In this document: positions 13,393-17,243 of the stretch, in pieces
How positions within the stretch are numbered: position 1 is the first letter of the stretch
Layout of the letters: every line of letters begins with the position of its first letter
DNA from: Promethearchaeia archaeon
GTDB taxonomy: Archaea > Asgardarchaeota > Lokiarchaeia > Sigyniarchaeales > SOKP01
DNA length: 32,000 nt
Assembly: GCA_046497275.1 (NCBI GenBank)
Contig: JAWOFX010000106.1
Location: forward strand, 1 to 32,000
Reading direction: 5' to 3'
Notes under the pieces: generated by a model
Database searches by the model: none
Told to the model about the DNA's origin: nothing
The model's input: the letters and a program-made list of their open reading frames with translations, nothing else
Translations under genes and position numbers: made by a program

Positions 13393-14574
13393 ATGAAATG
13401 TTATATTATTGACACTTTGATTGGATTATTTGCGCAAGATAATCAAGGGAATTTATTAAATTTTAGAAATTTTAATGATCAAACAGAAAGCGCAATAAAT
13501 TTCTTCACAAAACTCGATCAAGGAGAATTATTAGAAGAATATATAAATCTTTTGGATGAATTAACAAATTCTGGATTTGATACATTTATATTTGATAATG
13601 AAAATCTGAAAGCTGCGACCTCAGAAAAATTACATATAAATGCCAAATTAGAACCATCATCCTTAGAATTTAAGAATTTTAGATCCAACCTTCTTGAGAA
13701 ATTAAAAACAATTGGATTGAACTACACTGAACAAGAAATTAAAAAAAGGTATAAAAAGATAAGCCAAGAACTTATACGGCAAAAAGTTAGAGAGGCAGGT
13801 GAAGAAAAGGATATATTTATTGTTCAAGTAATCGAGATATTAGATTCTCTCAAAGAAGCAATAAGTCAATTTTCAAGTCGCTTGAGGGAATGGTATGGCT
13901 TACATTTTCCCGAACTCACCGATAGGATTATTGAGGATAATATATTATTAGCCGAAATTGTTGCAAAGGTAGGAAACAGAAAAAACTACAATGAAGAAGT
14001 TTTTAAAAACGGATTTGAAATTCCCCAAAGATTAATAGAGAAGTTAATAAATATGTCCACGAAATCAATGGGAGCAGATATCAATCTCAAAATGGTTAAA
14101 GATTTCGCTCAACAGATTCTCTCAATCAATAATTATAGAATATCTTTAGAATCATATTTAGAGGATCTTATGTCCATAACGGCACCAAATATTCAAGCTA
14201 TTGTAGGATCTCTCATAGGTGCAAAATTAATCGCAAAAGCAGGAAATCTTCGAAAATTAGCATTTATGCCAGCTTCAAGAATCCAACTTTTAGGAGCTGA
14301 GACCGCGTTATATAGACATTTAAAATCGGGACAAAAGCTCCCCAAACATGGAATTATTTTTCAATGGCAGCAAATTCGTGGAAATCCCCCTTGGATACGG
14401 GGGAATATAGCGAGATTAATTGCTGGTAAACTGGGGTTAGCAGCAAAAATAGACTATTTTTCCGGAGATTTTGTAGGGGAAGAATATGCAAAAGAGATTG
14501 AAGAAAAGATCGAAGAAATAAAGAAAAAATATCCAACACCTCCCGAAAGAAAACCAAAGAAAAAAAGGAAATAA
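13393..14574 (+). CDS. nop5: Nop5 (Nop56/58) box C/D sRNP core protein
   Basis: RLREWYGLHFPEL, APNIQAIVGSLIGAKLIAKAG, PASRIQLLGAETALYRHL, PKHGIIFQ, GNIARLIAGKLGLAAKIDYF. Confidence 0.96.
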   Translation: MKCYIIDTLIGLFAQDNQGNLLNFRNFNDQTESAINFFTKLDQGELLEEYINLLDELTNSGFDTFIFDNENLKAATSEKLHINAKLEPSSLEFKNFRSNLLEKLKTIGLNYTEQEIKKRYKKISQELIRQKVREAGEEKDIFIVQVIEILDSLKEAISQFSSRLREWYGLHFPELTDRIIEDNILLAEIVAKVGNRKNYNEEVFKNGFEIPQRLIEKLINMSTKSMGADINLKMVKDFAQQILSINNYRISLESYLEDLMSITAPNIQAIVGSLIGAKLIAKAGNLRKLAFMPASRIQLLGAETALYRHLKSGQKLPKHGIIFQWQQIRGNPPWIRGNIARLIAGKLGLAAKIDYFSGDFVGEEYAKEIEEKIEEIKKKYPTPPERKPKKKRK

Positions 14575-14591
14575 TGAGTTGATATGATATA

Positions 14592-15284
14592 ATGAATAAT
14601 ATTAAAATCCGAAAACACCCAAAAATATATAATGTATTTGTATCGGGGCCTTTATCCAATCCGCGTTTATATACAAGGAATTTAGTTCCTGGAAGAAAAA
14701 TTTATGATGAAAAATTAATTGAGGTTGATGGGATTGAATATAGAAGCTGGGATCCCAAAAGAAGTAAATTAGCGGCTATTTTTATAAATGATCCCTCAAT
14801 TAGTTTTTTGAGAAAAGCTAATAAATGTTTGTACCTAGGTGCCGCTTCAGGGACTACAATTTCACATCTTAGCGATATTTTACCTAATGGAATAATTTAT
14901 GCAGTAGAATTTTCTGAGCGCAGCATTCGACAATTAATTCAAAATACTTCAGATAGAAAAAATGTAATTCCTATATTAGCAGATGCACGCTATCCAGTAG
15001 ATTATGCAAATGCCATTTTTACTGATATTGATTTAGTCTATCAAGATGTTGCTCAACCAAATCAATCTGAAATTATAGTTAAAAATATGGATTATTATCT
15101 TAAAAAAAATGGAACTTTTATCTTTCTAATAAAATCACAATCAATTGATAGTATCTCAAAATCAGAGAAAATTTACAGCGAGGAAAAAAAAATTCTCCAA
15201 AAAGCAGAGTATAAAATACAAGAAAGTATCAATATTCATAATTTCGCTAAAAATCATATAGCTTTAATTGGAGAGAAAAAATAA
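14592..15284 (+). CDS. flpA: Fibrillarin-like rRNA/tRNA 2'-O-methyltransferase
   Basis: YRSWDPKRSKLAA, LYLGAASGTTISH, YAVEFS, NVIPILADAR, YQDVAQPNQ motifs; directly downstream of nop5. Confidence 0.97.
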   Translation: MNNIKIRKHPKIYNVFVSGPLSNPRLYTRNLVPGRKIYDEKLIEVDGIEYRSWDPKRSKLAAIFINDPSISFLRKANKCLYLGAASGTTISHLSDILPNGIIYAVEFSERSIRQLIQNTSDRKNVIPILADARYPVDYANAIFTDIDLVYQDVAQPNQSEIIVKNMDYYLKKNGTFIFLIKSQSIDSISKSEKIYSEEKKILQKAEYKIQESINIHNFAKNHIALIGEKK

Positions 15285-15350: not shown

Positions 15351-16074
15351 TTATTCATTAAAATATTGAGTTATTTTCCTATTATAAAGCTCTAAATCCA
15401 AGATTTTTTTTGTTGTCTGCCATGTTTTTCGAGCAAATGTTGGTGCTCTTTTTTCGATACGGATCCATTCTTTTAAAAAATTTATAGTAAGCTCATCAGA
15501 GGGATATCCTGAGCCAAGATCTGAATATCCCATATTTAAATATTTTTCTCGCAAGGAAGTTATAATCATATCGCGTTTATGTTTTGCAATGATTGACGCT
15601 GCTGAAACGATGGGATAATTTTCATCTGCCTTATGCTCTGATATTAATTTTAGAGGTTTATAATCTAATTTTTTACCAATCAAATTTTTAAATTTTTCCG
15701 CATTCGTATCGGCAGCATCCATATAAACTATGTCTGGCTTTAATTCATTGATTATTTCTGCAAATTTATTCATTTCGAGGCCATTTAAATTAATATCATT
15801 ATCAAATCTTTTATCAATCTCTTGAGCAGATATAACTAACGAATCATAACACACACAAGCATTTTTTATTAATTTAGAAAGATTTGCACGCTTTTCTGGA
15901 CTCAATAATTTAGAATCTTTTACTCCAATCTTTTCGAGATAATGTAAATTTGATTGTGCAAAACAAACACCGCAAACAACCAGTGGACCTAATACGGGGC
16001 CTTTTGGGCAATTAGGCGATATGCCTTAAATAACTCCCAGCCTCGTCAATTCCACAGATTAAAAAATCTTTCAT
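15351..16074 (-). CDS. rnhB: Ribonuclease HII, split gene: exon 1 = 16074-16034, exon 2 = 16002-15351; 230 aa if spliced
   Basis: Exon 1 reads MKDFLICGIDEAG(AG) and exon 2 reads (A)GPVLGPLVVCG...GVKDSKLLSPEKR...YMDAAD...EHKADENYPIVSAASIIAK...GSGYPSD. Joined length is 41+652=693 nt, i.e. 231 codons in one open frame. The ORF track caught only 15351-15905. Confidence 0.93.
16003..16033 (-). other. Putative 31-nt bulge-helix-bulge intron in the rnhB mRNA
   Basis: Minus-strand sequence UUAUUUAAGGCAUAUCGCCUAAUUGCCCAAA. Central helix UGGG(16039-36)/CCCA(16008-05), 3-nt bulges AG|U (16035-33) and AA|A (16004-02), internal hairpin AGGC-AUAUC-GCCU. Removal gives DEAGRGP. Confidence 0.85.
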
Positions 16075-16220
16075 TATAATATTATCAGATTTGTGTAAAA
16101 ATTCGATTTTAATTAATATATTAAAACATTTTAATCGATAAAAAAATAAATATTGTTATATAATAAAGCAGTAATAAAATATTATTGGAATACTTAGAGA
16201 TATCGAGTTTTAATACAATT

Positions 16221-17243
16221 CTAATTAATTGAAGTAGATTTTTCTGAATCTTGTACGAGGTTTATGAATTCTTCCTCATCATCGATTTTTTCTAATTGTT
16301 TAATCTTAATAATCGGAATTTTCTCCTTCGGAAGATTTTTAGGTATTTTTATACCATTATTTATGATAAATATCGCTTGCTTATGAAACAAATTTGTAAG
16401 GATTTTTAAATTTTGTAGGCATTTTAAATTGATCTCCTTAATTTTTTCTTTTTCAGAAACCTCAGAGAATAATGGATAAAATTGATTTTCTATATCTACT
16501 TCCAAATTTTTGGAAGAGAGTAAGACTTCGAAAGGGAATTGCCTTTTATACCAATATGATTTTATACCAATATCTTCAATAATATCTCGAAGATGTTCCT
16601 CAAAAGGACTTAATTCTTTTTCTTTTTCAATAGTCAATTTTTCGAAATCGAATTTAAAATGCCAATCTAACACATCTATATTTCGTACAAAAGAGTTAGA
16701 GCCCAGAGCTTTTCCAAGTTTCTCGGCAATCTCCATTGAGGGTCTCATATTTTCGCTTTCATATGAGCAGAGAGTTCTTTTTGTTATTCCAATCTGATCT
16801 GATAATTCTTTTCTAGATATTTTTTTCTCTTCCCTCAGTTTTTTCATAATATCTCCATCAAGAAAAACAACACCACCCCCTCTTCTAGCCAAAATATAGG
16901 GATAAAATCCTTCTCTTAATATTTTTTCTAAAGTATTTATATTGATAAAGGGTAAACCTTCTCGTATATATATTGTATTATCTTCCAGCTTTTGGTATCT
17001 ATTTTTCATTCCAATAAGAAGAGGTTTTGATTTTAAAAGTTTTGAAAGTAATTTAATACCTTCAAGTATATCCTCATTAATATTATCGATATTTGAAAAT
17101 AATTTTACTATAAATACCAGATTATACTTCTTGACTAGAAAATCGTAGCAGTAGCTCTGTCTGTTAGTATTAAATCTGAATGAAAATGTTTCAAACTGTG
17201 CTTCATTTAATAGATGTTCAATTTTTTGTAAAATTTTTTCCAT
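16221..17243 (-). CDS. Archaeal Cro/C1 HTH-type transcriptional regulator (nuclease-like N-terminal domain + XRE HTH; COG1395-like)
   Basis: CYDFLVKK..FIVKLFSNID, IREGLP, ARRGGGVVFLDG, KISRKELSDQIGITKRTLCSYESENMRPS HTH. Confidence 0.85.
   Translation of the reverse strand: MEKILQKIEHLLNEAQFETFSFRFNTNRQSYCYDFLVKKYNLVFIVKLFSNIDNINEDILEGIKLLSKLLKSKPLLIGMKNRYQKLEDNTIYIREGLPFININTLEKILREGFYPYILARRGGGVVFLDGDIMKKLREEKKISRKELSDQIGITKRTLCSYESENMRPSMEIAEKLGKALGSNSFVRNIDVLDWHFKFDFEKLTIEKEKELSPFEEHLRDIIEDIGIKSYWYKRQFPFEVLLSSKNLEVDIENQFYPLFSEVSEKEKIKEINLKCLQNLKILTNLFHKQAIFIINNGIKIPKNLPKEKIPIIKIKQLEKIDDEEEFINLVQDSEKSTSIN

Follow-up and report, generated by a model that had tools for sequence, protein, structure and literature searches.

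A putative bulge-helix-bulge mRNA intron in the ribonuclease HII gene of a family of Lokiarchaeia

Results

The ribonuclease HII gene and its insert

The window analysed here is a 32,000-nucleotide (nt) stretch of DNA (positions 1 to 32,000 of contig JAWOFX010000106.1, assembly GCA_046497275.1) from a Promethearchaeia archaeon of the order Sigyniarchaeales (Lokiarchaeia). On its minus strand it carries rnhB, the gene for ribonuclease HII (RNase HII), which is interrupted by a 31-nt insert with the features of a bulge-helix-bulge (BHB) intron in messenger RNA (mRNA). In the genome, a draft assembled from a metagenome (188 contigs, 3.85 Mb, 30% GC, 98.9% complete), a Pfam search identified this single RNase HII gene and no second RNase_HII match. 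The parts of the gene are as follows.

16034..16074, minus strand: rnhB exon 1, starting with ATG at 16074-16072 and comprising 13 codons (MKDFLICGIDEAG) and the AG of an Arg codon, ending at G16034
16003..16033, minus strand: predicted BHB-type intron, 31 nt, which shifts the frame and has an in-frame TAA at 16014-16012
15351..16002, minus strand: rnhB exon 2, with A16002 as the third base of the Arg codon, followed by GPVLGPL..., stop codon at 15353-15351
rnhB mRNA, minus strand: predicted spliced junction GCUGGGAG-AGGCCCCG

The insert lies directly after the DEAG of the catalytic motif. Read without splicing, the open reading frame (ORF) at 16074-16012 encodes a peptide of 20 residues (MKDFLICGIDEAGSYLRHIA), and the remainder of the gene from 16002, 216 codons, is in a different frame from exon 1. 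Exon 2 alone matches positions 8-199 of the Pfam family RNase_HII (PF01351, E 3e-41); exon 1 contributes the segment ending in GIDEAG, and the spliced N-terminus is colinear with those of intron-less orthologues, which themselves match RNase_HII positions 1-199. Excision by the BHB rule, which places a cut behind the second base of both bulges, yields GGG AG/A GGC, encoding G-R-G, and restores DEAGRGP in an ORF of 230 residues.

The bulges and helices from which this junction was predicted are listed below.

16036..16039, minus strand: central helix H, 5' strand UGGG, the third base of the Ala codon and the Gly codon
16005..16008, minus strand: central helix H, 3' strand CCCA, within the intron, pairing with U16039-G16036 (4 base pairs)
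16033..16035, minus strand: 5' bulge AG/U, 3 nt, predicted cut G16034/U16033
16002..16004, minus strand: 3' bulge AA/A, 3 nt, predicted cut A16003/A16002
16009..16032, minus strand: intron hairpin h', stem 16032-16023 with 16017-16009, one U.U mismatch and one bulged A, loop AUAUC at 16022-16018
15997..16001, minus strand: 3' strand of the exon-exon helix h, pairing weakly with 16044-16040

The B-H-B core of the motif is canonical and is flanked by a strong h' and a weak h, the latter made up of the pairs C16040-G16001, G16042-C15999 and G16044-C15997, with a G.G mismatch after the first and an A.C mismatch after the second. A weak h is compatible with the relaxed motif cut by broad-specificity (alpha-beta)2 endonucleases (PMC5829648). 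An initial annotation of the window had described the same insert, with its coordinates, the 20-residue peptide and its TAA at 16014-16012, the individual base pairs and bulges, and the Arg codon, DEAGRGP motif and 230-residue ORF that follow from the cut rule of the splicing endonuclease EndA; every one of these elements was recovered from the sequence.

The insert in related genomes

A search for the RNase HII family in 40 relatives returned many genes with 30 or 45 extra nt and internal stops, or with a match from profile position 8, and with the insert at the identical place (GGN AG / insert / A GGN). A strict insert pattern was then applied to 154 genomes of the order, with the reversed pattern as a control; it found the insert in 56 of them, all in the family of the window, and the control found it in none. 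Relaxing the pattern by leaving the middle base of the 3' bulge free (A-N-A) and using species-level genomes, we identified a 28-31-nt insert at this very position in 77 of the family's 135 genomes, distributed over 8 of the 12 sampled genera. The relaxed pattern had no credible match among 265 genomes from more than 30 other Asgard families, where it produced only two chance-like hits, one of them in a genome in which the control pattern also matches. A search for related loci in named genomes yielded only distant relatives, with at most 45% identity.

Among the 56 genomes with the strict pattern, the insert is 30 nt long in 52, 29 nt in two, 28 nt in one and 31 nt in the window, and the 30-nt versions are in-frame and carry stop codons. 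Excision at the BHB sites results in ORFs of 219-263 residues in all 54 genes that are not cut by a contig end, and none of these 54 complete genes has a further lesion. The 5' bulge is AG(A/U/G) in 56 of 56 orthologues, and the 3' bulge is A-N-A in the 77 orthologues. Ahead of the insert, exon 1 is conserved in all cases, and with it DEAG and its catalytic Asp and Glu. Intron-less orthologues, including those of three species of the genus of the window (G001, G003 and G005), have GGN-AGA-GGN at the predicted junction (AGG and CGG occur there once each).

Most species of the largest intron-bearing genus (g11) have G-S (GGC TCT) and not G-P after the junction, giving DEAGRGS; the U at this place gives the exon-side helix one more pair, A-U. 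An insert elsewhere in the RNase HII genes of another Asgard family (f26), considered because of low scores, was ruled out: the ORFs are divergent but uninterrupted. Its four sequences (G209, G242, G246 and G317; E 1e-16 to 1e-26) have in-frame extra segments and ORFs of 262-280 residues.

Covariation between exon and insert

Covariation was assessed in the alignment of the 56 strict-pattern sequences, with 500 shuffles and slid partners as controls. The proposed structure is paired in 82% of the cells, compared to 73% in the shuffles, none of which (0/500) reaches the observed value, and 22-48% with slid partners. The central 4-base-pair helix (alignment columns 15-18 with 46-49) is paired in 91% of the cells, being complete in 37 of the 56 orthologues and paired at three of four positions in the other 19, and shows double changes at two of its four pairs: the first occurs as U-A, A-U, C-G and G.U, and the last as U.G, G-C, U-A and C-G. 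On the 5' side, these two pairs involve the third bases of the Ala and Gly codons, whose changes are followed by the intron. In the inner stem (h'), eight of nine pairs have changes on both sides across the orthologues. The alignment of orthologues that the initial annotation had proposed as a check revealed both presence and absence of the intron among relatives and compensatory changes in the central helix and h'. The pairs of helix h are invariant, since both of its strands are conserved coding sequence.

Selection and history

Between intron-bearing orthologues, the ratio of nonsynonymous to synonymous substitution rates (dN/dS) is 0.03-0.42, mostly 0.11-0.20, and for intron-less pairs it is 0.07-0.15. 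By this measure rnhB is a living gene under purifying selection, and the relaxed selection and further lesions in relatives that the initial annotation had named as signs of a simple inactivating insertion were not observed among the intron-bearing genes. A gene tree was built from 81 sequences of the 230-residue gene, among them those of 13 of the family's 58 intron-less genomes. Intron presence on this tree takes at least 11 changes, at least four of which are forced by well-supported branches, and supported sister pairs have opposite intron states (G005/G006, G014/G024 and G021/G010). The pattern probably reflects an old gain of the intron in this family of Lokiarchaeia followed by repeated exact losses, with spread by recombination between relatives as a possible alternative.

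Other interrupted genes in the genome

Inserts of the same kind were found in other genes of this genome.

C83:19114-19145: predicted EF-1alpha intron, 32 nt, frame-breaking, with the P-loop split as GHIDHG / KSTMMG
C83:1644-1673: predicted intron in the gene for RNA polymerase A' (RpoA'), 30 nt, in-frame with a stop, ...GHFGH / IELARP
C171:12136-12166, C59:8285-8316, C98:30530-30559, C105:26548-26519 and C46:5373-5403: five more genes with 30-32-nt BHB-like inserts, for a Glycos_transf_3 phosphorylase, an ABC ATPase, a DeoC/LsrF aldolase, a thiolase-like protein and a Prismane/CODH protein

The EF-1alpha insert has a central helix AUGG/CCAU, bulges UA/U and AA/A and a hairpin, and the Pfam GTP_EFTU match of this gene begins only at profile position 16; the RpoA' insert has a central helix GGGC/GCCC and a 9-base-pair hairpin. 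Pfam matches also border the inserts in the Glycos_transf_3 phosphorylase, where the domain begins at profile position 11 with the first residue past the insert, in an ABC ATPase, where it ends at Walker B on the last residue ahead of the insert, and in a DeoC/LsrF aldolase, where the DeoC match ends at 198 of 229 profile positions, again on the last residue ahead of the insert. The thiolase-like and Prismane/CODH genes are weaker cases, in which different domains flank the insert and neither match abuts it. Two more candidates were noted on the motif alone (C136:3776-3748, DnaG-like, and C141:3136-3106). The genome's cbf5 gene is uninterrupted, with 336 residues in a single stop-free frame.

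Because EF-1alpha and RNA polymerase are indispensable, their inserts must be removed, which provides the strongest, albeit indirect, argument for removal of the rnhB insert. The rnhB intron would accordingly be one of many similar mini-introns in the genome, where at least eight genes appear to share one architecture with an insert of ~30 nt. This supports the suggestion of the initial annotation that an overlooked class of tiny mRNA introns is present in Asgard archaea.

The genome-wide scan for BHB-like insertions that had likewise been proposed yielded individually convincing candidates, which were then checked against Pfam, but no reliable count. In a de novo census that combined a BHB descriptor with ORF fusion, using registers shifted by 1-2 nt as the control, ORF fusions across the genome were no more common at the true register than at the shifted ones (e.g. 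1312 versus 1318-1435), with a modest excess (83 versus 62-68) only among inserts whose 3' bulge begins with AA. At a GC content of 30%, the signal is drowned out by chance hairpins and by the boundaries between genes, hence the lack of a dependable number. Conserved codons rich in G/C (Gly, Ala, Pro) may help introns to persist by providing the exon half of the motif with a stable partner.

Splicing enzymes, host and neighbouring genes

The genome encodes two proteins of the EndA family (PF01974) and two RtcB ligases (PF01139). The first EndA (C46:30059-30661, 201 residues) has its best PDB matches in 3p1z_B (E 3e-38), the catalytic chain of a crenarchaeal heterotetramer, and 3ajv_B, and it contains the Tyr/His/Lys pattern, which we take to be that of EndA catalytic subunits. 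The second (C168:8025-8624, 200 residues) lacks the catalytic His and is more divergent. Judged by their sequences, the pair fits the (alpha-beta)2 type, the broad-specificity form with an L1 loop described for Asgard EndA (PMC5829648).

Assignment of the host to the Asgard archaea, as made in the initial annotation, agrees with the presence of five actin-family genes (scores up to 444 bits) and with the nearest named RNase HII proteins, which belong to 'Candidatus Lokiarchaeota' or 'Promethearchaeota' archaea. One actin-family paralogue (C66:10869-11683, minus strand), whose frame is broken by a stop, was considered as a further intron candidate and rejected: the cause is a frameshift within a T homopolymer, which points to a pseudogene or to a sequencing error in the homopolymer. 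The program aragorn predicted only 19 tRNA genes, nine of them with introns, in this 98.9%-complete genome, a low number that points to most tRNA genes carrying interruptions of a sort missed by standard tools, as reported for Asgard archaea.

Within the window, rnhB is convergent with genes for a Nop5-like protein (393 residues) and a fibrillarin-like protein (230 residues) at 13393-15284 on the plus strand, which are box C/D ribonucleoprotein genes; upstream of rnhB, at 17243-16221 on the minus strand, lies a gene for a 340-residue protein with a helix-turn-helix segment.

Public gene calls and sequence reads

Public gene calls of rnhB are 223, 184 or 167 residues long, start inside or after the intron and all lack DEAG; the 223-residue form opens with intron-encoded residues (MSPNCPK...). 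The same 5' truncation is seen in the NCBI orthologues named 'ribonuclease HII [Candidatus Lokiarchaeota archaeon]', and the cluster members from NCBI, JGI and Logan/ENA have the same truncated gene call. No spliced-form protein was present among the six cluster members in public protein collections. These RNase HII entries are devoid of the catalytic motif because the gene callers start inside the intron, in line with the expectation, voiced in the initial annotation, that such genes are recorded as truncated. A contig from a DNA run spans 15983-16300, including the insert, with zero differences; this run may be the source sample.

Discussion

Interpretation and proposed mechanism

The insert in rnhB is very likely an endonuclease-spliced mRNA intron of the BHB type, as the initial annotation held. 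This interpretation is supported by the conservation of the site, the covariation, the exact intron-less alleles, the purifying selection and the presence of both EndA and RtcB, from which we infer that splicing occurs and that these two enzymes carry it out. In the pre-mRNA, the end of exon 1 (GC-U GGG) would pair with the CCCA of the intron, forming the 4-base-pair helix with a 3-nt bulge on either side, and the rest of the intron would fold into a hairpin of ~9 base pairs. A heteromeric (alpha/beta) EndA would cut after the second nucleotide of each bulge, and RtcB would ligate the exons and probably circularise the intron, producing the Arg codon AG/A and a 230-residue RNase HII with DEAGRGP intact. 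Without splicing, only the 20-residue peptide or a protein devoid of the catalytic Asp and Glu would be made. Regulatory coupling through the intron is pure conjecture, and a gene-specific regulatory role for rnhB is unlikely because many unrelated genes have such introns.

Several observations weigh against this interpretation. The fold of the window sequence alone is no more stable than that of shuffled sequences (z-score of the minimum free energy, MFE, -0.45), and the BHB conformation, at -7.2 kcal/mol, is not the MFE structure, a competing fold without the 5' bulge reaching -17.3 kcal/mol. The 4-base-pair helix has one mismatch in 19 of the 56 orthologues, and G.U accounts for three of its four pairs in 12 species. 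Helix h (C-G, G.G, G-C, A-U or A.C, G-C) is weak and yields no covariation evidence. Finally, contigs of three salt-lake metatranscriptomes, mostly of single-read length and one ending in adapter sequence, map to exon 2 only (15417-15988, 100% identity), and none reaches the intron or the junction. Single-sequence thermodynamics is, however, uninformative for a protein-recognised motif, and the element is judged to be real because of the comparison of the 56 orthologues, not because of its thermodynamics.

Alternative explanations

The insert could be excised from the RNA at the same junction by machinery other than EndA and RtcB, such as another structure-specific nuclease and ligase. EndA and RtcB were assigned from their presence and the shape of the motif, which leaves room for such an activity, as do the weak exon-side helix and the fact that the BHB is not the MFE fold. 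We nevertheless consider it improbable: the canonical geometry of an EndA substrate is conserved in 56 sequences, the cuts yield the right codon, and both the alpha and beta subunits of EndA are encoded along with RtcB; an (alpha-beta)2 enzyme of broad specificity that has the L1 loop is reported for Asgard archaea (PMC5829648).

Slightly less probable still is translational recoding, whereby ribosomes would bypass, frameshift over or read through the insert in an uncut mRNA. Such a mechanism would suit a short, hairpin-forming insert located 14 codons from the start and, in most orthologues, a 30-nt in-frame one. Yet lengths of 28, 29, 30 and 31 nt reach one and the same junction only by excision, the in-frame versions contain stop codons, and the exon bases covary with the 3' end of the insert, for which recoding has no need; read-through would, moreover, place 10 foreign residues into the catalytic DEAG-RGP motif. 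A bypass element of the phage T4 gene 60 type was rejected specifically: there are no matched take-off and landing codons and none would insert Arg, the first in-frame stop lies six codons past the break and not directly after the take-off, and the gap varies from 28 to 31 nt. A self-splicing group I or II intron was dismissed likewise, the insert being a single hairpin of 28-31 nt as opposed to a ribozyme core of some hundreds of nucleotides.

It is highly improbable that the insertion has inactivated rnhB, leaving a pseudogene or a truncated protein lacking DEAG. Public annotation implies as much, through the products of 223, 184 and 167 residues and the six cluster members with no spliced form, but rnhB is the sole RNase HII gene of the genome, the insert has been kept at the same site in 77 species of 8 genera, the complete genes are lesion-free, dN/dS is 0.03-0.42, exon 1 with Asp and Glu is always conserved, and EF-1alpha and RpoA' are split in the same way. 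An assembly or sequencing artefact, with the 31 nt absent from the DNA, could be suspected in a metagenome-assembled draft of 188 contigs, but is hardly conceivable given the insert in independent assemblies of 77 species, the DNA-run contig that contains it and the truncated call shared by the NCBI, JGI and Logan/ENA members.

Significance

Quite likely, gene expression in these close prokaryotic relatives of eukaryotes routinely and necessarily involves the cutting and rejoining of mRNA by the tRNA-splicing machinery. With EF-1alpha and RpoA' split alike, the cell could not live without mRNA splicing by EndA and RtcB. If so, splicing must outrun translation or be separated from it, which bears on the order of transcription, splicing and translation in the archaea closest to eukaryotes, and current Asgard gene catalogues would systematically mis-call such genes as truncated or broken, an annotation error that distorts pseudogene counts, completeness estimates and protein-family alignments. 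The interrupted genes also provide a concrete, testable set of substrates for Asgard EndA.

Comparison with known systems

The closest known counterpart is the intron in the cbf5 pre-mRNA of Crenarchaeota, which was reportedly described by Watanabe (2002) and Yoshinari (2006). It is likewise a short BHB intron in coding sequence, and it resembles the rnhB intron in its patchy presence and absence with precise loss. The cbf5 intron occurs in Desulfurococcales and Sulfolobales, is removed by the heteromeric tRNA-splicing endonuclease, and goes back to a gain in an ancestor, after which some lineages lost it precisely (Yokobori 2009, PMC2738675). The rnhB intron differs in its host gene, its position in the catalytic DEAG/RGP site and its phylum, the Asgard archaea; it would work alike but is not a member of the cbf5 family. 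Furthermore, whereas the cbf5 intron is isolated in its genomes, at least eight genes of a single genome, EF-1alpha and RpoA' included, appear to be affected here, and whereas splicing of cbf5 has been demonstrated experimentally, that of rnhB is predicted here from sequence comparison.

The BHB introns of archaeal tRNAs and rRNAs, whose hBHBh' motif was reportedly defined by Marck and Grosjean (2003), share with the rnhB intron the BHB motif, h being weak in rnhB, the predicted cut positions and the presumed enzymes, EndA and RtcB. They differ in the substrate: in an mRNA, excision must be exact to the nucleotide for the frame to be kept, and it competes with translation. The short mRNA introns of HAC1/XBP1 are also spliced with no spliceosome, through cleavage by Ire1 and ligation by tRNA ligase or RtcB (RtcB in metazoans), and, as proposed for rnhB, their removal changes the reading frame; however, the nuclease Ire1 recognises stem-loops rather than a BHB, and the reaction serves a regulated stress response.

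Heavily interrupted tRNA genes have been reported in Asgard genomes in a preprint that is confined to tRNA genes, never mentions mRNA and uses 'protein-coding' once, for neighbouring genes (bioRxiv 10.64898/2026.10.13.758758). In the searchable full-text literature, BHB introns in archaeal mRNAs have been described only for cbf5. Within that literature, rnhB would therefore be the second host gene for endonuclease-spliced archaeal mRNA introns, in a different phylum and with unusually strong comparative support. Compared with cbf5, the mechanism proposed for rnhB is one that is already known, and it is the scale on which it appears to operate in this lineage that is the more novel part.
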